This document shows positions 3,547 to 24,765 of a stretch of 56,064 nucleotides of DNA, one piece after another. Made by a program: the position numbers and the translations under genes. The DNA is taken from contig CANRPB010000002.1 in assembly GCA_947632415.1 (NCBI GenBank), positions 1 to 56,064 of the forward strand, read 5' to 3'. Under the pieces are notes generated by a model that worked only from the letters and a program-made list of their open reading frames with translations, did not search any database and was not told the origin of the DNA. Position 1 is the first letter of the stretch, and the number at the start of each line of letters is the position of its first letter. This stretch comes from an uncultured Bacilli bacterium (GTDB lineage: Bacteria > Bacillota_I > Bacilli_A > RF39 > UBA660).

Positions 3547-3920
3547 GATTCAAAAACCTCCTCAAAATAGTCTTTGAGATTTTTAACATAGTTATTAAGT
3601 TGTTTCCTATAACTAGACATTTTACATTCTTCACAATTTACTTTATCAACACAATAAAACAATGTGTGTAACTGTTGGCATTTTTGACAAAAGTCATTTT
3701 TTATTTCCGATTCATTTATTGTAACATACAGTGAAACAACAAATGTTGGAATTTTTGTTTTTTTAACATCTTTCTTTTCTATTTTTACAGTTACACGTTT
3801 TGCATAATCAGATTTACCATAAACATTTTTTGCCAACCAGATACAAGCATTCAAATAAGCTTGTTTTGAAACTTTATTAGAAAATTCTTTTTGAAAAATC
3901 ATTTCTGAATAAGTTGTCAT
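3543..3920 (-). CDS. Hypothetical Cys-rich protein (125 aa)
   Basis: CQKCQQ...CVDKVNCEECK; start and stop coupled to neighbours. Confidence 0.6.
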   Translation of the reverse strand: MTTYSEMIFQKEFSNKVSKQAYLNACIWLAKNVYGKSDYAKRVTVKIEKKDVKKTKIPTFVVSLYVTINESEIKNDFCQKCQQLHTLFYCVDKVNCEECKMSSYRKQLNNYVKNLKDYFEEVFES

Positions 3921-4396
3921 TACATTTCCCCCGATTCTATTGCTGTTCTTGCTAATTTGTCTGCTTCTTCATTAAAATAATTTCCATTATGTCCTTTTAC
4001 CTTTGTAAACTTTATAATAACATTTCTACTTTTAAGTTTACCAATTTCAGAAAGTAAAGGTAACCACATATCAGAGTTTTTAATTGATTCACCCCTTGCA
4101 TTGATAAATCCATTTGCAGACCAATTAGCAACCCAATTGTCATTAATTGCATTTACAACATAAGCACTATCAGAAATGATTTCAAGATTTCTTATTTTTA
4201 CTTTATCTTGGAAAACCAATTTTCTGACATGCTCCAAACCAATAAGTACACCCATGAGTTCCATTCGATTATTTGTTGTTTTGTCACAGAATCCAGAAAG
4301 TTTTTTAACTTCATCATCCATACAAATTAAACAACCATAACCACCAGGACCAGGGTTTCCAGAGCAAGCTCCGTCCGTGTACATTTTTACATTCAT
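3920..4396 (-). CDS. rnhA: Ribonuclease HI
   Basis: YTDGACSGNPGPGGYG, NNRMEL, SDSAYV, GHNGNYFNEEADKLA = RNase HI DEDD pattern. Confidence 0.85.
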   Translation of the reverse strand: MNVKMYTDGACSGNPGPGGYGCLICMDDEVKKLSGFCDKTTNNRMELMGVLIGLEHVRKLVFQDKVKIRNLEIISDSAYVVNAINDNWVANWSANGFINARGESIKNSDMWLPLLSEIGKLKSRNVIIKFTKVKGHNGNYFNEEADKLARTAIESGEM

Positions 4397-5261: not shown

Positions 5262-5972
5262 TTAGATATCCCATTCCCCATCATCATCGTCCTCTTCCGC
5301 ATCCTCTGCTTCAGCCTTCTCAACCTTTTTGGACGGTCTACCTCTTTTACCAGACTTAGCAGGTGCCTTTGTGGGCTTCTCCTCCTCGTCCTCCCAATCG
5401 TCATTCTCGTCCTCATCTGTGTCATCCTTTGCATCAGCAGCCTCAAGAAGCTTTACATATTCAGCAGCCTTCATCTTCGGCTGTGCCTTAATACCACGCT
5501 TCTTACACAGCTTAAACAGTTCAACAGCGTTCATGGAAGAATAATCATCACCATCGGACTCATCCTCAGAATCCTCATTATCCGCATCCTCCTCCAGTGC
5601 ATCTACTGCCTTCTTTGCTGTTGCCTTACGTGCCTCACGCCTCTTTCTAGCTCTCTCCCTTGCAGCTTCCTTCTTTGCATCGTCAGACTTGGTTGCCTTC
5701 TTTGCCTTCTTAGGTGCATCCTCCTCCTCATCGTCTGAATCATCATCACCCTCAGCAGATGTATCAACATCACCCTTCAGTACAGCCTCAACCTTACGTG
5801 CCGTTACATACTCAGGAAGTGCATTAATAATTGTCATAGCACCCTCATTGTTACCCATCTTTGCCAGTGCAACCGCAACATTAGGGAATCTCTTACCCAG
5901 GTCACAAATACCTACCTTGTCATTGTTAATCACTGCCTCTGCAGCTTCTGCCATTGTCCAATTCTTTGCCAT
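5262..5972 (-). CDS. Acidic/basic DNA-binding-type protein with HeH (Rho_N/SAP-like) motif and an AT-hook
   Basis: KKAKKATK and RERARKRREARK tracts; NAVELFKLCKKRGIKAQPKMKAAEYVKLLE; AT-hook KRGRPSKK (5325..5348); DDWEDEEE and C-terminal GEWDI; 30/60 G+C at 5641..5700. Confidence 0.65.
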   Translation of the reverse strand: MAKNWTMAEAAEAVINNDKVGICDLGKRFPNVAVALAKMGNNEGAMTIINALPEYVTARKVEAVLKGDVDTSAEGDDDSDDEEEDAPKKAKKATKSDDAKKEAARERARKRREARKATAKKAVDALEEDADNEDSEDESDGDDYSSMNAVELFKLCKKRGIKAQPKMKAAEYVKLLEAADAKDDTDEDENDDWEDEEEKPTKAPAKSGKRGRPSKKVEKAEAEDAEEDDDDGEWDI

Positions 5973-8872: not shown

Positions 8873-9100
8873 CTATCCCTTTTTAACCCTAACCTTTTTA
8901 TGGGTGTTACTACCATTAATGGGTTGTGTTTTTAACCTTTTGTTTCTATTCTTTATCATGGTATCACTAACCATGTTATCTATCCTTTGTTCTTTTAACC
9001 TTTTGTTGTTTTTTTCTACTTCCTCTAAATATAATGGACAGTCTATATGACAAGTTATTGTTCTATTTTTACAATTATAACAAACATGGAAAGCCACCAC
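8873..9100 (-). CDS. Cys-rich basic protein (75 aa)
   Basis: CYNCKNRTITCHIDC then a Lys/Arg-rich tail; GTG start. Confidence 0.5.
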   Translation of the reverse strand: MVAFHVCYNCKNRTITCHIDCPLYLEEVEKNNKRLKEQRIDNMVSDTMIKNRNKRLKTQPINGSNTHKKVRVKKG

Positions 9101-9714
9101 TATTTTTCCTCCTTTAATAATTGTTTGGAAACAGGAATAAAACCATATAAGGAAATACAGATACTATCAGCAATGTTATCATTATAAGTATAACGTTCCC
9201 CATGTTTTTCTATTACCCCTTTTGTTTTCTTTGATGTAACTGGTTCTTTTATTTTGGATTTATAACCATTCTTGATACACCATAATATTGTTGGATATTT
9301 TTTAGAGTCAATACCATATGGGTTGTCTAATCCTTTTGAATTACCAACAATGGATGATTTCCAAGCACGTGTGTCAACAGAATATACAGGATAATCAAAG
9401 GTTGTAGCTGTATCTACAATCAAGGCATTTAAAGCACCAATGGATTTTATATAGTCAATGTTAATAAATCCTTGGGAACGTAAACGAATTCTTTCTATAA
9501 TAACAATAACATCTGCATCCTTATCCTTGGACAAAATATGGACAGTACTAAAAACATTAAACAAACGTTTTTGAAGTTCTTTCCTTTTTTCAGAATTGGA
9601 TTTATATTTTTCTAAACATAAATGGGAAGCTGTTTTTAATTTGTTATTATAGGAAACAGATATCCCTGTATCTTTATAACTTTGATCTATACCAATTACA
9701 ATTTTATTTTTCAT
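9100..9714 (-). CDS. RuvC-like Holliday junction resolvase (candidate)
   Basis: MKNKIVIGIDQSYKDTGISV N-terminus and VIVIIERIR strand as in phage RuvC-fold resolvases. Confidence 0.5.
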   Translation of the reverse strand: MKNKIVIGIDQSYKDTGISVSYNNKLKTASHLCLEKYKSNSEKRKELQKRLFNVFSTVHILSKDKDADVIVIIERIRLRSQGFINIDYIKSIGALNALIVDTATTFDYPVYSVDTRAWKSSIVGNSKGLDNPYGIDSKKYPTILWCIKNGYKSKIKEPVTSKKTKGVIEKHGERYTYNDNIADSICISLYGFIPVSKQLLKEEK

Positions 9715-9890
9715 AACCCCATATCCTCTATTTCCTTTACCCATCCTTCTTTAACCCATTTTTCAGGGCACATTCCTTTATAACATTCAAACCTGGAATA
9801 GCCTTCCTTATATTTACCATAAACATGTGGTGGAGCTGTTTCCGTTGGAATAAATACATGTCCTTGTTTTGCATAAATATATTTACACAC
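9711..9890 (-). CDS. Small Cys-containing protein (59 aa, GTG start, below the ORF-track cutoff)
   Basis: Hand translation ...GHVFIPTETAPPHVYGKYKEGYSRFECYKGMCPEKWVKEGWVKEIEDMGL; GGAGGG 10 nt upstream; ATGA coupling to the next gene. Confidence 0.35.
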   Translation of the reverse strand: MCKYIYAKQGHVFIPTETAPPHVYGKYKEGYSRFECYKGMCPEKWVKEGWVKEIEDMGL

Positions 9891-10515: not shown

Positions 10516-11376
10516 TTATATTTTTACCCTTCCCATACCAATGTTATAACAAGCATCACGCATTGGACATTTCTCAGCCATTTTACAAGTTGATGAATCA
10601 CATTCCTTATGTCGAGGAACCATTTTATGTTCTTCCTTAAATACATTATAATAATACTGGATTGATTCACAACGTTCTATAAATGGAGCTACCGTTTCAG
10701 GCTCATAATCATAAACAAATGTTTTAAATTCCTGAGCCCCTTTATCATCACATAAAACAAATCCCTTTTTATAGTCATTTGATTTTGTATTTAACACCCC
10801 TTTTGCTTTTTGACACAAATACATATACCATTGTAATTGTTTGTGTCCTGAGGGGTGTGAAGCCATTTTCTTAAACTGGAATGGATTTACCGATTTAATT
10901 TCAACCACCATTGCACCATCATAAAATTCAGGAATTTTACAAACAACATCAGGGGTATAGCTTATTTTGAAATCATCATCAAACCGTGTATAGTCCAATG
11001 TTTTTGCTTTTGCATATCCAGCACGGATAAATAACCTCTGCCATTTTTCATGGATTGCATTACCCTCTGCAAATATACGCATTAAACTTACAGGCAATTG
11101 TTCCCCTTGTAATTGTTTGTACAATAAACTTAAAACCTGTTGTCTTACACAAAACTGTTTATCCGATACAATAATTGCAGAAGCATGAAGTCCAATTCTT
11201 TCCGTTGTATCAGAACCACGTGTCATTACTTGTTTTACAAATTTTGTTTCTTCATCAATGTTTTTATCTAAGTAAAACATTTTATTTAATATGCCTTCAA
11301 GTTTTGCTGATTCAGATGATTGTACTTTAGAACCAGTCTTTACAGCATCGTTTTTAATATCATTTATTATTCCCAT
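10516..11376 (-). CDS. Cas4/AddB-type PD-(D/E)XK exonuclease with Cys cluster
   Basis: YTPDVV...VVEIKS nuclease core; N-terminal FCVRQ Cys plus C-terminal CDSSTCKMAEKCPMRDAC cluster. Confidence 0.65.
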   Translation of the reverse strand: MGIINDIKNDAVKTGSKVQSSESAKLEGILNKMFYLDKNIDEETKFVKQVMTRGSDTTERIGLHASAIIVSDKQFCVRQQVLSLLYKQLQGEQLPVSLMRIFAEGNAIHEKWQRLFIRAGYAKAKTLDYTRFDDDFKISYTPDVVCKIPEFYDGAMVVEIKSVNPFQFKKMASHPSGHKQLQWYMYLCQKAKGVLNTKSNDYKKGFVLCDDKGAQEFKTFVYDYEPETVAPFIERCESIQYYYNVFKEEHKMVPRHKECDSSTCKMAEKCPMRDACYNIGMGRVKI

Positions 11377-11809
11377 TATTAGCCTCCCATACAACACCTT
11401 TATGTGATATTACTTTTTGTATTCCAGAGTTAGCTAACATTCGTTTACATATCGGACAAGGTTCAACATCAATATACATATTTACCTTATCACCACTGTC
11501 CTCATATCCAGATAAATACATAACCGAACCAATCATATCCTTTCTGGAAGCAGATAACATTGCATTTTGTTCAGCATGAACGGAGCAACAATCAGAATAG
11601 TCACCAGAGTTATGTGGTTTATTCAATCTTTTACATTGACCCAAATCACAACAATTTATCCCCCCCCTTGGAGAACCATTAAATCCTGTTGCAATTATTT
11701 CATCATTCTTTACAATGATACATCCATACTTACGTTTTAAACAACTACTTCTAAGTGATACTGAAAATGCTATTCCTAAATAATAATCAGTCTTTGATAT
11801 TCTTTTCAC
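11360..11809 (-). CDS. dCMP (deoxycytidylate) deaminase
   Basis: CSVHAEQNAM and EPCPICKRM = HAE / PCxxC zinc motifs of the cytidine/dCMP deaminase family. Confidence 0.85.
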   Translation of the reverse strand: MKRISKTDYYLGIAFSVSLRSSCLKRKYGCIIVKNDEIIATGFNGSPRGGINCCDLGQCKRLNKPHNSGDYSDCCSVHAEQNAMLSASRKDMIGSVMYLSGYEDSGDKVNMYIDVEPCPICKRMLANSGIQKVISHKGVVWEANNGNNK

Positions 11810-13339: not shown

Positions 13340-13780
13340 TTATTTAATTACCTCCCCAATAACATCCTGTACTTTATCTCTTACCTTAACCCATTCATTA
13401 AATGTAATACCATCACAATCATATTTTTCCTGCAGATTATAAAAACACTGTAACAAATATCGTTCCGTGTGCCAACCAGCAAATAACTCATCATGTGTTA
13501 TTGCAGAACCAACCTGCATTTCCTCAGGATTAACATAATCATAAATCTTTTTCCTTGATTCATCGGATATATTAAAACCACGATTAAACATTTCATTTAC
13601 AACCATACAGCAATAGTTATAAAAGTGGGATTTATTATAATCCATTACTTTATTTACAAGGATATGATTAGGCGTTCCATGTTTCATAATGTTTACAGCA
13701 ATTGCACAACATTCACGCCACTGTGCTAATAACTGTTTATCTGGAAGTACATCAATTAAATCTTTATGCCACATTCTCAT
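13340..13780 (-). CDS. T4 endonuclease V (DenV)-like pyrimidine-dimer DNA glycosylase family protein
   Basis: LIDVLPDKQLLAQWRE and EMFNRGFNISD parallel T4 DenV L..EL.DQHLMAEYRE and ECLKRGFNIKD. Confidence 0.55.
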   Translation of the reverse strand: MRMWHKDLIDVLPDKQLLAQWRECCAIAVNIMKHGTPNHILVNKVMDYNKSHFYNYCCMVVNEMFNRGFNISDESRKKIYDYVNPEEMQVGSAITHDELFAGWHTERYLLQCFYNLQEKYDCDGITFNEWVKVRDKVQDVIGEVIK

Positions 13781-14406: not shown

Positions 14407-17160
14407 CTATTTAAATGTTCTTGCCAACAGTGCACTGTTATATTTTGTTACCCTACTGATAAAAGTCTTTTTATTAAATTCAGCTGCACCATATTCTTTT
14501 ATAATTCTTATTACACGTTCATTCACAACTCTTGATTTACAACGATCATAAAAATTATCAAAAGAAGTAAATATACCATTGGCAATTCTTTCGGCAACAA
14601 TTTCCGTTGCAGCTTTTTCACCAACACCTTTTAATTCAGCCAAACCACGTTGCAAACACTCTTCCCCATCCACTTTTCTTATTTTCATTTTAATATCAGA
14701 ATAATTTATATGCGGCAAGAATACAACCAAGTTATCTTGTACAGCTAAACTACAAAACTTATCATAATCATCTTCGTTTGGTGCATATTTAATTTTACAG
14801 AACCAGAATTTTGTTGGGTGATACACTTTATAATAACACTCTTCAACACCAATCAATGAATAACCAACAGCGTGTCCTTTATTAAATGAATATACCAACA
14901 TAGTATCAAATACTTCCTGTGCTTGTTGTTTTGACAAACCATTCTTTAAAGCACCTTTTACAAATTTTTCATTCAATTCCTTTTTGTTCCGTTCAAATTC
15001 AGCTTTTGCATCTTCACTTTGTGATTGTCCACCAATCATCTTCATTACCTTATCAGCATCCCCCCATGTCATATTACCAATGTTTACACATATCTGTTGA
15101 ATTTGTTCCTGATATATAACAGCCCCATATGATTCCTGTGTATAATTATAATAAACACTTTGTTTTGCTTCTTCCAAATTAAATTTATTTTCTGCATATG
15201 TTTCAGGCATTTTCATTTTCAAAGGGCCTGGCCTATTCATTGCATTAGCAGCCACAATATCATCAAAGGAACTACAATTTATTTTTACCAAAATATCACG
15301 TACTGCTTTTTTATCAAACTGGAATATTCCAATGGTATCCCCATTTTCAAACCTGCTTAATATTTTATCATCTTTTACAATATCATCATAATTAACTTTA
15401 ACACCAGTCTCTTCCCTTAATTCACCAAGTTCTTCCATTGTATTAAGACCCAGCATATCAAATTTAATTACATGTATATTTTCCATATCGTTCAAATCGT
15501 AATTGGTATATATATCGCCCGACTTATCAATACGCAACGCCGTATAATCCAATATATCCCCACCAGTAACGGCAACACCTGCAGCGTGTGTACCAATGAA
15601 ACGCATTTTCTTATACAGCTTTGTAAAATGTGTCATGATATTATCATATTGTGAATTATACATCCTGGATTCACGGTTCTTTAACAATCCCTCTGCATTT
15701 AAATTTCCATCTTCATCAATATACTCATTACACAACGATTTTATTTTTGCAATTTCTTTTTTGTTATCCGCAACTTCACTCGGGTCAACTTCTTTATCCG
15801 TTGGCAAACCACAAACCTTTGACAAATCATTTATTAAATTATCAACTTTATACAAACCATAACTAGCAATCCTTGCCGTTTTCCCTTTATATTTATTTAT
15901 TACATACTCAATTACTTCATGCCTCCTTGATGTTTCAAAATCCATATCAATATCAGGCATTTTCTTTTTATCCTCACGCAAGAATCGTCTAAAATCCAAA
16001 CCAAACAACAGACTATCAACTTCCGTGATTCCTAACGCATATGCAATCAAACAGTTACAAGCAGAACCACGCCCAGGACCTACATTGATTCCCTGTTTCT
16101 TTGCCCAGTTTACATAGTCCGCAACGATCAAAAAATAATCATGGAAACCTAATGAATTAATTACTTTATATTCATCTTGTACACGAGATATATAATCAAG
16201 TCCTGTTTCTGGATGTTTATGTGTCCACTTCCCACGTTTTGACAATCCCTGTTTTATTTTCTTTTTTATCAATGCATCAGAATCATCACTGAACTTTGGA
16301 AGTAACTGTTGTAAATCTTTAAATATATCATCATCAACTTTATCTTCAATTTCTTTTAAGTTATTTATCATTTGTTTTCCAACACGTTCTACATTTACAA
16401 AATCATCACCATGCATTTTTACAAAACGATTATACAAGTCCTTATCTGACGGCATATAACGTTCCTTATACGTTGCGGCAATATGTTCAATGTCATGTTT
16501 GGATATTTCATGCATTTTCAAATATGTATCAAAATCTTCCTTCCTACCCCTGTGTGAATCGGAAGTCAATATGCATTTCACATTTAATTTTCTACCAATA
16601 TTTATTGCCATTACATTTACTTTTTGTTGCAAACCTAATTCAGATATTTTATATGGTTGTACCTCAATATAAAAATCATCTCCAAAAATATCAACCATCT
16701 TTTTTACAAATTTTTCCGCTTGTTTAATTTTATCATCTTTTAAACATTGTCCTAAATATCCAGCAATACAAGCTGATGTACATATAATTCCTTCATGGTA
16801 TTTTTCCAACATTTCAAATGTCCATATTGGATTATAATATTTTATCTTTTCCCCTTCATATTGTAATTCATTCAAGTTATGATAACCAACATGGTTCTTT
16901 GCAAACAAACATAAATGATAACCCCTGTTTTGTTCTTTATACACAGGTAGGAAATATCCTTCCACCCCAAGTACTGGTTTTATACCAACATCCTTACAAG
17001 CCATATAATGTTGTACCAGTCCATTTGTATTACCATGATTAGAAATGCCTAATGCCGTGTGTCCAAGTTCCTTTGCCAATTTAGCTAACTCTGTTGCTTT
17101 TCCAAAACCATCAAATGTAGAATATTCATCATGTCTATGTAAATCCATACCATCCTCCAT
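14407..17160 (-). CDS. dnaE: DNA polymerase III alpha-type (DnaE-like) replicative polymerase, 917 aa
   Basis: PHP domain DLHRHDEYSTFDGFG and SNHGN; core motifs GPGRGSACNCLIAYALGIT and MPDIDMDF. Confidence 0.9.
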   Translation of the reverse strand: MEDGMDLHRHDEYSTFDGFGKATELAKLAKELGHTALGISNHGNTNGLVQHYMACKDVGIKPVLGVEGYFLPVYKEQNRGYHLCLFAKNHVGYHNLNELQYEGEKIKYYNPIWTFEMLEKYHEGIICTSACIAGYLGQCLKDDKIKQAEKFVKKMVDIFGDDFYIEVQPYKISELGLQQKVNVMAINIGRKLNVKCILTSDSHRGRKEDFDTYLKMHEISKHDIEHIAATYKERYMPSDKDLYNRFVKMHGDDFVNVERVGKQMINNLKEIEDKVDDDIFKDLQQLLPKFSDDSDALIKKKIKQGLSKRGKWTHKHPETGLDYISRVQDEYKVINSLGFHDYFLIVADYVNWAKKQGINVGPGRGSACNCLIAYALGITEVDSLLFGLDFRRFLREDKKKMPDIDMDFETSRRHEVIEYVINKYKGKTARIASYGLYKVDNLINDLSKVCGLPTDKEVDPSEVADNKKEIAKIKSLCNEYIDEDGNLNAEGLLKNRESRMYNSQYDNIMTHFTKLYKKMRFIGTHAAGVAVTGGDILDYTALRIDKSGDIYTNYDLNDMENIHVIKFDMLGLNTMEELGELREETGVKVNYDDIVKDDKILSRFENGDTIGIFQFDKKAVRDILVKINCSSFDDIVAANAMNRPGPLKMKMPETYAENKFNLEEAKQSVYYNYTQESYGAVIYQEQIQQICVNIGNMTWGDADKVMKMIGGQSQSEDAKAEFERNKKELNEKFVKGALKNGLSKQQAQEVFDTMLVYSFNKGHAVGYSLIGVEECYYKVYHPTKFWFCKIKYAPNEDDYDKFCSLAVQDNLVVFLPHINYSDIKMKIRKVDGEECLQRGLAELKGVGEKAATEIVAERIANGIFTSFDNFYDRCKSRVVNERVIRIIKEYGAAEFNKKTFISRVTKYNSALLARTFK

Positions 17161-17247: not shown

Positions 17248-17949
17248 TTAAAATACATCTTTTACATCTTTTTTATAAACGTGCAACGAGAACATTGTAT
17301 GTGTAAAATTACCAACTTTCATGTTACATGCACCAGCAACATATTCAAGAAGTCTAATTGCCAAATATACATCATTTGTAAAGTGTGTGTTAAAATCACA
17401 ACTCCGCATTACATAATGCATATTTAATTTTCCTTCCCTATACTGGAAATTATACCCAAGTGAACAAGGTACTCTTGAAATACCACCAAGTCTATCAGGG
17501 TCAATTGCAGGATTCCAAATCGACAACCACAACTGCCTTGAATCATGGTCCTCACTTAACCTATTTACAATTTTACTTATCTGGTCGTTAAACCAAATTC
17601 TTTCGTTATATGTATATGCCATTTTACCATCATGCAAATACTCATTCCATACATCCTCACGAAGTTTATATGCTTCCCCAGGATTTATAAATTCCGTACC
17701 ATTTCTAAATGGGTCAAACATTCTTTCATCAAATTCTGCATCAGCCCATGGTTGTGTTACACCAGTTATATCACTTGACTTTGCATTCAAAATTGTATAA
17801 CAATAATTCTGAAGTTCCTTTGTTTCATAATCTTCATTTCCTTCAATCTTTTTATCCTGCATTGTTTTAGGTTTTACAAGTATACCCATTTCAGCAAGAT
17901 CCCTTTTTACCTCTTCATATGCTTCTTCCCAATTCATATAAATTCTCAT
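17248..17949 (-). CDS. ThyA-fold deoxypyrimidylate C5-(hydroxy)methylase, dCMP hydroxymethylase-like
   Basis: DSRQLWLSIWNP, VPCSLGYNFQYREGKLNMHYVMRSCDFNTHFTNDVY and SLHVYKKD parallel ThyA/T4 gp42 motifs. Asp lies 11 residues after the RS Arg, where ThyA has Asn177 and T4 gp42 has Asp179. Confidence 0.7.
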   Translation of the reverse strand: MRIYMNWEEAYEEVKRDLAEMGILVKPKTMQDKKIEGNEDYETKELQNYCYTILNAKSSDITGVTQPWADAEFDERMFDPFRNGTEFINPGEAYKLREDVWNEYLHDGKMAYTYNERIWFNDQISKIVNRLSEDHDSRQLWLSIWNPAIDPDRLGGISRVPCSLGYNFQYREGKLNMHYVMRSCDFNTHFTNDVYLAIRLLEYVAGACNMKVGNFTHTMFSLHVYKKDVKDVF

Positions 17950-17950
17950 T

Positions 17951-18631
17951 TTACTTTTCCTCCAGTTCAATATCATCAAACACAACAGGAATTCTATTTT
18001 TTAACTCTTTTAACAACGGTACTGTTACTTCCCTCATTTGTGGATGGGCTGTTTTTGCAACTCTTAATTTAAAGAAATTTCTCCATTCACGATAATTTGC
18101 TGTAATTGTAATTTCAGTCTTTGTACTGTTTGGTAATACAGAACGTGCAATTTGAGAGGTTGCTCCCAGCTCAATCATTTTTAAATAGTGACGTTCAGCA
18201 TCCATCATTGCCTCATTCCACTCTTTTAAAACATTTGCAATATCATAAGAACTCATAGTGGACATTTTACCATCTAACTTCATTCCATTTGTAACATCAA
18301 TCACTGAAATTTCATTACCAAATTTATCATTACTGTAATTACAATACCTTGTACTTTCCTGTGCAAAAGAAGCAATCCTATGTCTTACTAACTCATGTGA
18401 TACACCACGATCAACAATAAATTTAACCGTCAAAGAACTATGTTCAATCATTGCTTCATGTCCACGGTCAATTAACATTTTAACAAACCTTTTTGCACTT
18501 TCCCCATCCTCTGAAATTTTATCTTCGGATTTATAACAAACCCTACCAATTTTTTCAATGTGTTTTAATTCATCAATACCACCATCAGAAATGTTTGATA
18601 AAATTTCATAACCAGCTTTTAAAACTTTCAA
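17951..18631 (-). CDS. thyX: Flavin-dependent thymidylate synthase ThyX
   Basis: RHRIASFAQESTR = ThyX motif RHRxxSxxxxSxR; TTG start 10 nt after AGGAGG. Confidence 0.85.
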   Translation of the reverse strand: MKVLKAGYEILSNISDGGIDELKHIEKIGRVCYKSEDKISEDGESAKRFVKMLIDRGHEAMIEHSSLTVKFIVDRGVSHELVRHRIASFAQESTRYCNYSNDKFGNEISVIDVTNGMKLDGKMSTMSSYDIANVLKEWNEAMMDAERHYLKMIELGATSQIARSVLPNSTKTEITITANYREWRNFFKLRVAKTAHPQMREVTVPLLKELKNRIPVVFDDIELEEK

Positions 18632-18632
18632 T

Positions 18633-19391
18633 TTACCTTTTCCTCCTTTTTGGATTTTCAAAATGTTCCTTTATTGATAATGATTGTATATCAACAGGTT
18701 CATATTTGTCAATACCAAAATATAATCTTTGCATCGTTGCCAATGTCATAAAGGAACTTATTTCACATTTTGTTTTAAAATACCGTGTATAGTCTGCATT
18801 TAATTGTCTTATCCATTGGTGCTCATAATTAAGTTCTTTACGATCAACACCAAAATAATCAAAGAATCCATTTATAAATTTACCACCACAATAGCATTGA
18901 GCCATGAAGAAAATTACATTGCCAATTTCACAACAATCTGGAAGTTCATTCACAAACCGATTTAACATAACCAAATCTGCAGCCATACGCCTTTGTGTTT
19001 CCGTAACACGATAATAAACTTTCATACCAGTCCATGTATCATGTCTACGTTTTCTTGTTAATACAATAGAAATTAAACACGAACCATTATTTCTTTTTTT
19101 ATGTTTAAAATAAAATGTATAAGATAACCCTGATACCTTTTCTAATCCTTTATAGAAATTTTGTAATTCATCATAGTCAATATAAGTGTTTAACAAATGT
19201 CCCCATTTTGATTTCTTATAACCAAAATTAGCAAGGTCCAATGTACACTTTGGAGTTTTACAACCAATCACAACATTTTCTACATAACCAGAATCACCTA
19301 ATACTGTTTGGATTATTTCAGGATGTAATAAAAATTTACGATTTAATTCCAAAAACATTTCATCAAAGTCTTTATATTTTTCTACTAACAT
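18633..19391 (-). CDS. Diverged thymidylate-synthase-fold-like protein, paralog 1 (252 aa), function unknown
   Basis: About half its residues match neighbour 19385..20143 by eye. NNGSCLISIVL and YYRVTETQRRMAADLV align in order and spacing with the ThyA PCH strand and the RSxD...N segment. Confidence 0.5.
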   Translation of the reverse strand: MLVEKYKDFDEMFLELNRKFLLHPEIIQTVLGDSGYVENVVIGCKTPKCTLDLANFGYKKSKWGHLLNTYIDYDELQNFYKGLEKVSGLSYTFYFKHKKRNNGSCLISIVLTRKRRHDTWTGMKVYYRVTETQRRMAADLVMLNRFVNELPDCCEIGNVIFFMAQCYCGGKFINGFFDYFGVDRKELNYEHQWIRQLNADYTRYFKTKCEISSFMTLATMQRLYFGIDKYEPVDIQSLSIKEHFENPKRRKR

Positions 19392-20143
19392 TTCGTTTTC
19401 CTATCCTTGAAATACTCATCAATACTTAACGTATTTGCAGGTAAAGGTGGATATGTTTCCATACCCAACCTCATTCTCTGCATTCTAGCCATTGATTGAT
19501 ATGTTGTGATTCTTGCGCCATCAACAAAACTCCTATTATACGCATCTACCAATGATTTAATCCATGGGTGTGTATAATCCAATGTATCAAATGGAACTTT
19601 GAAATAATCATAGAATCCATTTATAACCATTGCAGAAGTATATGTTTGTGCCATGTAAAATGTTACACGTTCAATTTCACAACATTCAGGAAGTTCTTTT
19701 ATAAAACTATGAATCAGAACCAAATCAGCAGCCATTCTACGTTGTGTTTCTGTTGTCCTGTAAATTACATTACATCTAATCCATTTCTTTTTTCTATCTT
19801 TTCTGGATAACACAATTGCTATCAAACACGAACCATTGTTTATTTTCTTTTGTTTGAAATAATAAGTTAATGATAAACCTGAAGCAGTTTTTAACCGTTC
19901 CCTGAATTTAACAAGTTCATCATAGTCAATGTAATTTCTTAACAAATGACTCCACTTATTTTTCTTATACCCAAAATTACCCAAGTCCAAATTACAGTCA
20001 TATGTTTTACAAGCAATAAATATATTATCCATATAACCAAGAATACCATTTGTATAATCCAACATTTCATATGGATTAGTAAGTATTTCCTGATTAAGTT
20101 TTAAAAACATTTCGTCAAAATTTTTATATTTTCTTACTTTCAA
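19385..20143 (-). CDS. Diverged thymidylate-synthase-fold-like protein, paralog 2 (252 aa), function unknown
   Basis: Shares NFGYKK.KW.HLL..YIDYDEL, NNGSCLI.IVL, YR.TETQRRMAADLV, ELP.CCEI and F.MAQ.Y with paralog 1. Confidence 0.5.
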   Translation of the reverse strand: MKVRKYKNFDEMFLKLNQEILTNPYEMLDYTNGILGYMDNIFIACKTYDCNLDLGNFGYKKNKWSHLLRNYIDYDELVKFRERLKTASGLSLTYYFKQKKINNGSCLIAIVLSRKDRKKKWIRCNVIYRTTETQRRMAADLVLIHSFIKELPECCEIERVTFYMAQTYTSAMVINGFYDYFKVPFDTLDYTHPWIKSLVDAYNRSFVDGARITTYQSMARMQRMRLGMETYPPLPANTLSIDEYFKDRKTKC

Positions 20144-20769
20144 TAATTTGACCTCTGCCTAAATTTATTGACTTGGGATTTCTTTAAATAAACATCAACA
20201 ATTTCATTCTCTCTAAAACATGTGGAGAGTATTGCAAAATAATCAGCCCATACACATCTAAGTTTATGATAAAATTCATTTTTATCTGTAACCATATTTG
20301 TCTGTTTCCATGGTTTATTTTTTAAACAATTACACATCATTCCTAAATCCATAACCAAATCAGGAATCAAACAAAATACTTCCTTTGTTGTTCTTGATTG
20401 TTCATACAATGTGTGAATTAAACTATTATCCATTGGAACATCCCACACAACATCATCAGGACCCGAACCAGACAAAATAGTTAACTCCGTGAGGAAATGT
20501 AAACCATCAATCAATTCTTCCTTAAAATGGGCTTCGTCCTCATAAGCATCTAATGCTTCCCCAACTTCTTCCATGATTCTCCATGAAAAATCCTTTATCC
20601 TTGCCTGACCTCTTTTATCATCCAAATTAACAGGACAGTCTTCCGTTTGTAATAATCCACTTCTTTTTTCAATATCATGGTACTTTTCCATTAACTCTTT
20701 CTGACGATTAAATATTGCAATCAAACCATCACAATCAATTTCCTCTGATACAGCATGTGTTATATTCAT
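20140..20769 (-). CDS. All-alpha NTP pyrophosphohydrolase (dimeric dUTPase / MazG-like)
   Basis: IMEEVGEALDAYEDE and ELIDGLHFLTEL acidic helices typical of the dimeric dUTPase/dCTPase family. Confidence 0.55.
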   Translation of the reverse strand: MNITHAVSEEIDCDGLIAIFNRQKELMEKYHDIEKRSGLLQTEDCPVNLDDKRGQARIKDFSWRIMEEVGEALDAYEDEAHFKEELIDGLHFLTELTILSGSGPDDVVWDVPMDNSLIHTLYEQSRTTKEVFCLIPDLVMDLGMMCNCLKNKPWKQTNMVTDKNEFYHKLRCVWADYFAILSTCFRENEIVDVYLKKSQVNKFRQRSNY

Positions 20770-20771
20770 TA

Positions 20772-21317
20772 TCACGCTTCCTCCGTTCTATTTAATTTTG
20801 ATAATTTTACAATTTGTTCAGGATAATTTCCATCACTAACATTGTTATAATTATATTCACAAATCCTAAAACCATTATCGTTTAACCAGTATGCAAATAC
20901 ATTATATCCATCTATCAAACCTAAAACATTTTCTTTTACACCTTCCATTTGTTCCCTGTCCCCCCAATTTGTAACACAAAACAAACCAGGATAACAAAAA
21001 ACAAATAAATCAACCAGTGAAAGTAAACTCCTCCCTTCAAAACCATTCATAACATCTTCAAACAAATTTTTACCACGCAAAACAGTTCCACAAACACATT
21101 CCTCTATTAAAGGAAACCTATCAAATATGATATTCTGTTTAGAGTTTAAATTTGTTTCCATAAAATCAATGTACTCTTTTGCTGTTTTGTTTGCACCAAT
21201 ACTCTTTGCAATTTCAAACTGATTATAATATCTTTTTATATCATTACACAATGTAGTTTTACCTGAGTTATCACACCCAAAAACTACAATTTTTAAACCT
21301 CTTTCAAAATTTTCCAT
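20772..21317 (-). CDS. P-loop deoxynucleoside-monophosphate kinase (thymidylate-kinase-like)
   Basis: VVFGCDNSGKTTL Walker A, FDRFPLIEE; small kinase size; sits in the nucleotide-metabolism block. Confidence 0.6.
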   Translation of the reverse strand: MENFERGLKIVVFGCDNSGKTTLCNDIKRYYNQFEIAKSIGANKTAKEYIDFMETNLNSKQNIIFDRFPLIEECVCGTVLRGKNLFEDVMNGFEGRSLLSLVDLFVFCYPGLFCVTNWGDREQMEGVKENVLGLIDGYNVFAYWLNDNGFRICEYNYNNVSDGNYPEQIVKLSKLNRTEEA

Positions 21318-21368: not shown

Positions 21369-22301
21369 TTAACCCCAATCATCATCAGAGTCTTCGTCTT
21401 CATCCTCTTCCCAATCATCATGGGCTTTATCATTTTCCTTCAGCAGGTTAATATAATACTTTTCATTCTTTTTCGGAAGTGCCTCAATATCCCTTTCCTG
21501 ACACAGCTTATATAATTCCTTTGCTGTCATATCGGAATAATCCTGCTCTTCCTCCTCATCATCACCATCCCAATCATCCGAAGAATTTTCCTCATCATAC
21601 TCTTCCAACAGATCAATATAATACTTCGGCTTCATCTTAGGTTCTGCTTCTATATCACGTTCCTCACAAAGGTTATACAATTCCCTTGCAGACATTTCAG
21701 AATAATCAAGTTCCTCTTTCTCTTCCTTTGCCTTCTTACTCTTTGTCTTCGGAACATCTTCATCATCATCATTACCGTACTGTCCAGCATGTTCATCAGG
21801 ATATGCCTTATCCAGAATTTTCAAAAATGCTGATTTACTATACGGCTTTGCTTTTTCATTCCTAAATTTATTCTTATCCATTGGAACAACACTGAATGTT
21901 TTATTCTGCTGTTTACCAGTTACACTAATAACAAAATCACGATCAAGCAACGTTCCATAATTTTCATACATTGCTGCAATTGCTCCCAATGGTGAACAGT
22001 TATTCATGGGGTACATCAGAATCTTAACTTCCTTGGATTCATAATCCCATACAGACCATGCATATTGCGAACGTGTTCTAATTCCATCTTCCTCACAATA
22101 AATACAATTCCTACCAAAAATTTCCTGACACGGTACGTTAATATTTGCTTCAAAATTATCATGGAAGGTTACCTCAAATCCATCTTCCATATCACTTAAA
22201 AATCTTACCCTTTTCTTATCTCCATCCTTGAAGAAAATAAACTTCCCTTTGTTTTGCCCAGACCTCTGAGCATCCTGTTTAATTTTGTCCAATAATCCCA
22301 T
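21369..22301 (-). CDS. ssDNA-binding-type protein (gp32-like Zn-ribbon/OB candidate) with two HeH repeats and acidic tail
   Basis: PCQEIFGRNCIYC Cys cluster; duplicated SEMSARELYNLCEERDIEAEPKMKPKYYIDLLEE and SDMTAKELYKLCQERDIEALPKKNEKYYINLLKE; ends DSDDDWG. Confidence 0.45.
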   Translation of the reverse strand: MGLLDKIKQDAQRSGQNKGKFIFFKDGDKKRVRFLSDMEDGFEVTFHDNFEANINVPCQEIFGRNCIYCEEDGIRTRSQYAWSVWDYESKEVKILMYPMNNCSPLGAIAAMYENYGTLLDRDFVISVTGKQQNKTFSVVPMDKNKFRNEKAKPYSKSAFLKILDKAYPDEHAGQYGNDDDEDVPKTKSKKAKEEKEELDYSEMSARELYNLCEERDIEAEPKMKPKYYIDLLEEYDEENSSDDWDGDDEEEEQDYSDMTAKELYKLCQERDIEALPKKNEKYYINLLKENDKAHDDWEEDEDEDSDDDWG

Positions 22302-24519: not shown

Positions 24520-24563
24520 ATTAGTCCTCCTTTTTAATTAAAAAAATTTTTTTAAAACTACAA

Positions 24564-24635
24564 TGTGCATGACAGGGATCGAACCTGCACCTTTTAAACC
24601 ATTAAGGTATATGCTACCAATTACACCACATACAC
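24564..24635 (-). tRNA. tRNA-like gene with canonical acceptor, D and T arms but a non-canonical anticodon arm (possible pseudo-tRNA)
   Basis: Minus strand reads GTGTATG TG GTGT AATTGGTA GCAT A T ACCTT AATGGTTTAA AAGGT GCAGG TTCGATC CCTGT CATGCAC A. No 5-bp stem with a 7-nt loop can be drawn. Confidence 0.5.
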
Positions 24636-24694
24636 ACCTTACTATGACAAAAACGAAAGAAAGGATATGTACCCATGCTCGGCAAACATGGGAG

Positions 24695-24765
24695 TGGGGG
24701 TAGTTGGAATTGAACCAACGATACAGGAGTCAAAGTCCCGTGCCTTACCTCTTGGCGATACCCCT
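24695..24765 (-). tRNA. tRNA-Gln (anticodon UUG)
   Basis: AGGGGTA TC GCCAAGAGGTAAGGC A CGGGA CTTTGAC TCCTG TATC GTTGG TTCAATT CCAAC TACCCCC A. Close to E. coli tRNA-Gln; A1-C72 mismatch; no encoded CCA. Confidence 0.85.

Follow-up and report, generated by a model that had tools for sequence, protein, structure and literature searches.

Extremely diverged thymidylate synthase-fold paralogs in a phage nucleotide module as candidate enzymes of cytosine modification

What are the two overlapping genes that lie side by side in a stretch of 56,064 nucleotides (nt) from an uncultured Bacilli bacterium (contig CANRPB010000002.1, positions 1 to 56,064; "the window" below means this whole stretch), and what might their products do? 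The original prediction, made from the sequence letters, had taken them for thymidylate synthase (TS)-fold enzymes on the basis of the order of their motifs. Using sequence profiles and predicted structures, we indeed confirmed that both proteins are extremely diverged members of the TS superfamily. We refer to their family as X and to the two paralogs of 252 amino acids (aa) as X_B and X_A:

19385 to 20143, minus strand: X_B, the upstream paralog (252 aa), an open reading frame (ORF) that matches phrog_34294 (function unlisted; E = 2e-84) and was analyzed with AlphaFold2, Foldseek, and hhalign.
18633 to 19391, minus strand: X_A, the second 252-aa paralog, an ORF that was analyzed by BLASTP to X_B, clade analysis, AlphaFold2, and Foldseek.

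X_B and X_A are genuine genes because they have 88 homologous protein clusters, fall into two conserved clades, and give high-confidence AlphaFold2 models. BLASTP aligned X_A to X_B over their full length with 132/251 identities (53%; E = 2e-96), and the identical blocks comprise NFGYKK.KW.HLL..YIDYDEL, NNGSCLI.IVL, YR.TETQRRMAADLV, ELP.CCEI, and F.MAQ.Y. The ORF list and this alignment agree with the coordinates, the 7-nt overlap, and all shared blocks that had been described for the pair. The overlap reads ATGTTAG, with the ATG of X_A lying over the TAG of X_B, and the TTG start of X_B shares TTGA with the TGA stop of the pyrophosphatase gene before it. All 88 clusters, which were found in a search of 5.8 billion proteins, stem from metagenomic or phage-like contigs of ca. 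50 to 57 kb, and no Pfam domain was detected in any of them. A megablast comparison between the locus and GenBank phages returned no match. Plus-strand ORFs that overlap the region (e.g., 18493-18792) were taken as spurious because all supported genes of the window are encoded on the minus strand.

Searches of X_A and X_B against Pfam and NCBIfam gave no match, and neither did searches of PDB sequences with the single sequences or with close-family profiles. The PF00303 (Thymidylat_synt) model returned only noise on 133 diverse X members, none of which matched even at E values up to 1. AlphaFold2 models built from the family alignment reached a pLDDT of 95.2 for X_B and 93.2 for X_A, and the top 50 Foldseek matches of both models in the PDB all belong to the TS superfamily. 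The top two are, for either model, structures of AfhB from phage HY126 (9iqu and 9iqc; E = 5e-7 for X_B and 1.3e-7 for X_A, the latter with TM-scores of 0.55/0.62 to 9iqu), followed by MilA, the dCMP hydroxymethylase of phage T4, and ThyA. The TS alpha/beta fold, to which we assign both proteins, consists of a central sheet that includes the Cys-bearing strand, a subsequent hairpin, and the long J helix buried in the protein. A profile search among 1.84 billion cluster representatives enlarged the X family to ca. 350 clusters at E <= 1e-3 (clusters at 50% identity), and our diverse X alignment comprises 133 full-length representatives, most of which share less than 50% identity. A hidden Markov model (HMM) of these 133 members matched exactly two sequences of the whole PDB, both of them AfhB (E = 1.4e-5). 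When the X alignment was compared by hhalign to a diverse TS/AfhB profile, composed of RB69 gp48, four further AfhB-like proteins, an Enterococcus phage homolog, E. coli ThyA, and the second TS homolog of the window (TS*, see below) with its relatives, the probability was 95.5% (E = 1.6e-8 over 215 columns). All controls, i.e., the kinase family, the pyrophosphatase family, 20 column-shuffled TS profiles, and one reversed profile, gave 0.4% or less. Broken down by sub-profile, the AfhB-like branch reached 93.7%, the TS* branch 25%, and E. coli ThyA alone 1.5%; a narrow profile of TS* orthologs gave weak values of 6-11%, and the diverse TS/AfhB profile was required for the match. The nearest characterized relatives of X are the dCMP 5-hydroxylases of the AfhB/RB69 gp48 type. 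The TS fold that had been deduced from motif order is thus borne out by Foldseek, the family HMM, and hhalign with clean controls, and the profile-profile and AlphaFold/Foldseek comparisons that the original prediction had proposed as checks returned this fold and no unrelated one.

The hhalign register is the same as the one proposed beforehand, in which GSC corresponds to PCH, YR.TE to QRSCD, the Asp at Arg+11 to N177, and MAQ.Y to DTHLY of ThyA. It aligns the following residues of X_B and ThyA, listed with their role in the latter:

C106 (in NNGSC) with C146, the nucleophile, which opens the central strand.
R129 with R166, phosphate binding.
E132 with D169, cofactor contact.
D140 with N177, base recognition.
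Q166 and Y168 with H207 and Y209, contact to the 3'-OH.

The R-x2-E-x7-D spacing in X equals R166-x2-D169-x7-N177 of ThyA, and W64 of X_B aligns with the cofactor-stacking W80. Among the 133 representatives, K63 is conserved in all 133, D140 in 131, R129 in 130, C106 and Y71 in 129 each, and Y59 in 125, while position 132 holds Glu in 116/133 and Asp in 9/133 (Glu or Asp in 125/133, 94%). R/K136 and an aromatic residue at position 168 are kept in all loci examined, including both members of duplicated pairs (Cozz gp46 was not tabulated), and the extra X copies of related loci retain the core residues with the exception of K63R and E132Y in gp46 of Gordonia phage Cozz. The stretch Y-x3-K-W...C...R-x2-E-x3-[RK]-x3-D-L can serve as a sequence signature for finding X-bearing phages.

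Two features of this site speak to what X may recognize. D140, which lies 11 residues past R129 and is kept in 98% of members, occupies position 177, where Asp is an established determinant of specificity for dCMP over dUMP (PMC13326640, PMC8670742). The phosphate-binding DSRR motif is absent from X, as the original prediction had pointed out: the segment aligned to it by hhalign reads T-A-S-G-L in X_B and contains no conserved Arg pair anywhere in the family, and an evident equivalent of R21 was not found in the alignment either. The D169N exchange proposed as diagnostic of 5hodCMP synthases (PMC13326640) does not fit position 132, with Glu or Asp in 94% of members, and we rejected X as a 5hodCMP synthase given the lack of N169 and of any glycosylation genes seen with it. 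Also the acidic residue that T4-type hydroxymethylases carry at the position of L143, where it admits water, is missing from X, which has N103 there in the window and N/G/K/S/M across the family.

The original prediction had further described the pair as rapidly diverging, but the clade identities do not support this notion. Of the 88 clusters, 60 group with X_B in a B-like clade, and 22 group with X_A and the second copy of one related locus, L006, in an A-like clade; the mean identity is 62-69% inside the clades versus 51% between them, indicating that the A/B pair is old and under purifying selection in two separately conserved clades. We therefore rejected rapidly diverging duplicates, both clades being conserved. 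Clade-specific changes from B to A are few (L35S, N125K, T130V, L143M, Y177F, Y215F, and S217T), X_A keeps all putative catalytic-core residues, and numerous pairs of A and B clusters derive from equally sized contigs, which fits tandem pairs. In related phage loci with a PolIII-alpha polymerase, clade B is mostly found in single copy beside the pyrophosphatase gene; L006 carries a B,A tandem, and two other loci (L007 and L009) have an extra, distant X positioned after TS*. X_A is an added, lineage-specific copy in a sub-lineage. An obligatory A/B heterodimer as ancestral state was rejected because most relatives carry one X copy. Two strongly diverged tandem X copies of ca. 330 and 250 aa are encoded by three phages from the human gut with DNA polymerase I (MT121960, MT121964, and MT836181; L015-L017), both with the core residues kept, and this duplication is older than, and independent of, the A/B pair of the window. 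Second X copies hence recur in at least three lineages.

Which genes accompany X? The order of transcription in the window is primase, an acidic protein resembling single-stranded DNA-binding (SSB) proteins, thymidylate kinase (TMK)-like kinase, pyrophosphatase, X_B, X_A, ThyX, TS*, Pol III alpha, pyrimidine-dimer glycosylase, RecA, and dCMP deaminase, and the genes that bear on nucleotide metabolism are as follows:

20772 to 21317, minus strand: P-loop nucleoside-monophosphate kinase, TMK-like (weak Thymidylate_kin match; phrog_761).
20140 to 20775, minus strand: all-alpha NTP pyrophosphohydrolase, dUTPase_2 or MazG-like (PF08761, E = 1.3e-9; phrog_12184).
17951 to 18631, minus strand: ThyX, flavin-dependent thymidylate synthase (PF02511, E = 1.5e-46; TIGR02170; RHR...S motif).
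17248 to 17949, minus strand: TS*, a dCMP-type TS homolog (PF00303, E = 2.5e-19; ATG at 17949 after GGAGG).
11360 to 11809, minus strand: dCMP deaminase (PF00383, E = 2e-16).

The NTPase and ThyX between which the pair had been placed are therefore both there, with the P-loop kinase and the dUTPase_2-family pyrophosphatase upstream and ThyX downstream. A profile of 13 kinase orthologs matches YorR and vaccinia TMK along the full length, and the pyrophosphatase profile matches the PDB entries of MazG-like SSO3215, dimeric dUTPase, and HisE with an invariant EExxE...D motif. Judged from the sequence, ThyX probably starts with the TTG at 18631 that follows AGGAGG, rather than with the listed TTG at 18661. 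TS* scores far under the NCBIfam equivalog cut-offs and, aligned to E. coli ThyA and AfhB, has R143, S147, D169, and D177 in E. coli numbering. Its residues were tabulated for 20 loci and three cultured phages of Gammaproteobacteria, and TS* orthologs (L001-L017, L021, L022, and L029-L031) always show R143, S/T147, D169, and D177. By these residues, TS* is assigned to the dCMP type of TS homologs and set apart from ThyA, T4-type hydroxymethylases (acidic residue at 143), and 5hodCMP synthases (N169).

The same company surrounds X in other phages. Loci of the window's own type, comprising 13 from IMG/VR and that of Clostridium perfringens phage P21, encode kinase, pyrophosphatase, X (mostly in single copy), and TS*, and we found no ThyX in any of them. 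In the three human-gut DNA polymerase I phages, the order is pyrophosphatase, X1 (ca. 330 aa), X2 (ca. 250 aa), and TS*, with a ThyX gene between X1 and X2 in MT121960 (8086-8727). Serratia phage Serbin, Yersinia phage P744, and Pseudomonas phage PMBT14 carry a "thymidylate kinase", pyrophosphatase, X (E = 4e-35 to 7e-31 with the X HMM), TS*, dCMP deaminase, and PolA, and tblastn detected X together with the pyrophosphatase in Opt-155 and Tlacuache as well as X in Pseudomonas phage Almagne. Two metagenomic loci (L019 and L020) consist of kinase, pyrophosphatase, X, and PolA without any TS homolog within 10-13 kb, making X the sole TS-like gene beside kinase and pyrophosphatase. In Emalynvirus phages of Gordonia, TMK and MazG are followed by a small ORF, a distant X, and ThyX, and then, after further genes, by dCMP deaminase and polymerase. 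The X family extends to actinobacteriophages because gp46 of Gordonia phage Cozz (L033; 3965-4843) is a distant member (phrog_13667; E = 5e-16) that keeps Cys, Arg, and Asp next to the two exchanges mentioned above. The single distant members P0120, P0154, and P0170 yielded no related loci in IMG/VR. Among 185,579 species genomes, the sole close relative was found in a metagenome-assembled genome (MAG) of Lachnospiraceae, on a binned contig of 54 kb that is probably phage-derived; the X family is found almost exclusively on phage contigs.

Across these loci, the pyrophosphatase gene stands directly upstream of X in the window and 21/26 related loci, with a different gene of the pyrophosphatase family in PMBT14 and Cozz, while X and TS* are adjacent or set apart by a second X, ThyX, or one short ORF in 23/26 related loci and the window. 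The dCMP deaminase gene adjoins or is near TS* in the phages of Gammaproteobacteria and in L021/L022. The constant core of the module is composed of kinase, pyrophosphatase, and X, conserved across three replication modules and hosts of three phyla, and TS* is its usual fourth member. ThyX looks incidental in the modules of the window type and of the gut phages, where it seems to have been inserted twice independently at different positions, and fills the slot in Gordonia phages that TS* holds elsewhere. We rejected ThyX as a functional partner of X since the window and MT121960 are the only cases in which it lies within the module.

In phage T4, gp56 is a dCTPase, gp42 a dCMP hydroxymethylase, and gp1 a dNMP kinase. 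Because the trio of pyrophosphatase, X, and kinase reproduces this logic, we propose a mechanism for X that builds on the fold, homology, core conservation, and synteny shown above and whose substrate, chemistry, cofactor, and incorporation into DNA we infer as follows. The upstream pyrophosphatase would turn a canonical deoxynucleoside triphosphate (dNTP), most likely dCTP, into the deoxynucleoside monophosphate (dNMP), which the context argues for as the putative substrate of X. X would bind this dNMP with Arg129 on the phosphate and Asp140 reading the N3/N4 face of cytosine, and Cys106 would add to C6 and activate C5. A group could then be put on C5 from a cofactor in the pocket that takes up folate in TS and flavin in AfhB, with E132 (at the position of D169) and W64 as candidate residues there. 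Finally, the TMK-like kinase would re-phosphorylate the modified dNMP and the phage polymerase would incorporate the modified nucleotide, while X_A would either add a second specificity or take part in a heterodimer. Overall, we see the chances evenly balanced that X is catalytically active and modifies a cytosine nucleotide at C5.

Several observations weigh against this proposal. TS binds phosphate through four arginines, of which X lacks three with the DSRR motif and apparently R21, so that dNMP binding is not assured. Furthermore, ca. 11 residues are deleted near the Y94 region in a low-confidence part of the alignment, and the near-invariant Y59 and Y71 that flank the deletion are both candidates for the equivalent of Y94, the general base. 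The TM-scores to solved TS structures range just from 0.44 to 0.62, and no gene for a glycosyltransferase, methyltransferase, or other DNA-tailoring enzyme was found among the 36 ORFs of the window that were scanned. We also found no literature on the biochemistry or the DNA composition and modification of the X-carrying phages of Clostridium perfringens, Serratia, Yersinia, and Pseudomonas. The gene set of dUTPase-like enzyme, TMK, deaminase, and TS or ThyX resembles an ordinary module of dTTP supply, too, and since most X-bearing phages have TS* as a second cytosine-type TS homolog, the primary modification could be the work of X or of TS*, and the part of X could be secondary.

To our knowledge, three chemistries are known for the TS superfamily, namely methylation, hydroxymethylation, and hydroxylation. 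It is tentatively conceivable, if rather doubtful, that X performs a C5 chemistry on cytosine deoxynucleotides beyond these three, be it directly on dCMP or by a Cys-mediated exchange on the product of TS*. The division of labor between X and TS* is also at the heart of the alternative that fares best, by which TS* makes 5-hydroxymethyl- or 5-methyl-dCMP and X eliminates or exchanges the C5 substituent via an exocyclic methylene to generate a hypermodified dCMP. Such a second-step role would be in line with the tight linkage of X to TS* in 23 of the 26 related loci and the window, with the unusual R143/D169/D177 signature found in every TS* inspected, and with the cytosine-type Asp shared by both proteins. 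The loss of DSRR and the gain of two conserved basic positions, K63 and R/K136, would be expected for a substrate that is bulkier or carries a different charge. However, two metagenomic loci (L019 and L020) have X without TS* in the surrounding 10-13 kb, Gordonia phages pair X with ThyX and not with TS*, and no genes for the synthesis of a donor were seen in the window, so we consider this scenario unlikely.

X might instead be a non-catalytic or regulatory subunit with a TS fold, either as the partner of TS* or of another X, as a nucleotide binder in a dNTP-synthesizing complex, or as a poison that dimerizes with ThyA of the host. TS enzymes work only as dimers whose active sites are composed from both subunits: the DSRR motif (R126', R127') of one subunit donates phosphate-binding arginines to its partner across the dimer, and it is these arginines that X lacks. 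The recurrence of second X copies in at least three lineages would suit this idea, as would the three hydroxyls that clade A has lost, among them that of T130, which is aligned with the phosphate-binding S167. Nevertheless, we regard a role without catalysis as decidedly improbable, given that Cys, Arg, Glu, Asp, and Lys are near-invariant over ca. 350 clusters and in both members of every pair, and that a single-copy X exists without TS* (L019 and L020).

Returning to the module itself, its combination of dUTPase-like pyrophosphatase, dCMP deaminase, TS or ThyX, and TMK-like kinase could also reflect ordinary supply of thymidylate, in which X acts on uracil or thymine nucleotides or otherwise supports dTTP synthesis and no DNA base is modified. 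The replacement of TS* by ThyX in Gordonia phages would agree with such a role, yet 98% of X members have Asp rather than Asn at the equivalent of N177 and the nearest relatives of X are specific for dCMP. In addition, ThyX joined the module twice independently, suggesting that dTMP is supplied by neither X nor TS*, and we therefore give a role of X in mere dTTP supply a very low probability. Finally, X might act on cytosine within DNA or RNA, or on a substrate other than a nucleotide. The loss of three of the four arginines of the TS phosphate clamp could be read this way, and the original prediction had suggested that the substrate may not be a simple dNMP. Such activity is hardly to be expected because X shows translational coupling to an NTP pyrophosphatase and linkage to a nucleoside-monophosphate kinase, keeps the equivalents of R166 and Y209 for contacts to phosphate and 3'-OH, and belongs to a superfamily of which we know of no polymer-acting enzyme.

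Beyond the nucleotide module, several other genes of the window stand out. Its replicative polymerase (14407-17160, minus strand) is a 917-aa protein of the Pol III alpha type with a PHP domain on a phage genome of ca. 56 kb, and other X-bearing phages have a PolA fused to a uracil-DNA glycosylase (UDG)-like domain. The SSB-like protein (21369-22301, minus strand; 310 aa) combines an N-terminus matching phrog_14578 with two acidic C-terminal repeats (DYS.M.A.ELY.LC.ERDIEA.PK...YYI.LL), and a 236-aa ORF at 5262-5972 (minus strand) contains a related repeat (phmmer E = 1e-11). Further replication and repair genes on the minus strand encode a T4 endoV-like pyrimidine-dimer glycosylase (13340-13780), an RNase H (3920-4396), a RuvC-like resolvase (9100-9744), and a Cas4/RecE-like exonuclease (10516-11397). 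Two phage tRNA genes, tRNA-Leu(TAA) and tRNA-Gln(TTG), lie at 24563-24636 and 24694-24765 on the minus strand and fit an AT-rich genome of ca. 30% GC.

We found no paper on the X family. Both phrog_34294 and phrog_13667 are listed with "unknown function" in PHROGs v4, and GenBank labels X orthologs as "hypothetical protein" except for those of Yersinia phage P744, of one spring-water contig, and of CPAS-15. The former two, P744 (PP693299) and the Manatee Spring contig, bear the label "pyrimidine hmase synthase", and X of CPAS-15 (MN417334) is called "colanic acid biosynthesis glycosyltransferase", which is evidently wrong. The TS fold is known, whereas the X clade, its signature, and its module are undescribed. 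For a long time, the TS superfamily was held to carry out folate-dependent one-carbon transfer only, until the discovery of flavin-dependent dCMP hydroxylases in 2025-26 revealed that the TS fold can switch both cofactor and chemistry. X represents a further family-level TS clade that keeps the core of covalent catalysis and is found in phages of three bacterial phyla. If active, it would be a new source of 5-modified cytosine or of a new base and would bear on the evasion of restriction and CRISPR, on artefacts in gut-virome sequencing, and on enzymology. Should the chemistry even be a new one, phages of Clostridia, Serratia, Pseudomonas, Yersinia, and Gordonia would carry an undescribed modified cytosine in their DNA, and the question is directly testable with several X carriers in culture.

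How does X compare to known systems? With ThyA and the other PF00303 proteins, it shares the fold as well as the order and spacing of Cys146, R166, D169, N177, and H207/Y209, but N177 is changed to Asp and D169 to Glu, H207 is variable, DSRR and apparently R21 are lost, and the loop before the Y94 region is shorter by ca. 11 residues. The CMP hydroxymethylases MilA and BcmA resemble X in their TS fold, in their specificity for cytosine nucleotides, and as top Foldseek matches (5jnh, 5b6d, and 5b6e), yet they belong to bacterial secondary metabolism with ribonucleotides as substrates, are recognized by Pfam, and have another genomic context. The flavin-dependent dCMP 5-hydroxylases AfhB, RB69 gp48, and DLP3 gp80 (PMC13326640), also called 5hodCMP synthases and characterized by bound flavin and O2-dependent hydroxylation, provide the top structural match for both X paralogs (TM-score up to 0.62), share an N-terminal helix-strand motif, the catalytic Cys, R166, and the cytosine-type Asp177 with them, and are likewise phage-encoded beside genes of the nucleotide pool. 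Unlike X, these enzymes are ordinary PF00303 members with the diagnostic Asn at position 169 where X has Glu, and AfhB keeps the DSRR motif as NSRR; moreover, no genes for arabinose or glycosyl transfer were seen with X. In terms of module, the closest parallel is T4 with gp56, gp42, and gp1, since both sets unite an all-alpha NTP pyrophosphatase, a TS-fold enzyme with Asp177, and a dNMP kinase, and Foldseek matched X to 1b5d, 6a9a, and 6l18. Nonetheless, X is just 6-7% identical to gp42 in sequence and lacks the acidic residue at the L143 equivalent as well as DSRR, with the equivalent of E60 not identifiable. A similar module logic to that of the X trio is seen in MazZ and PurZ of the 2-aminoadenine phages.

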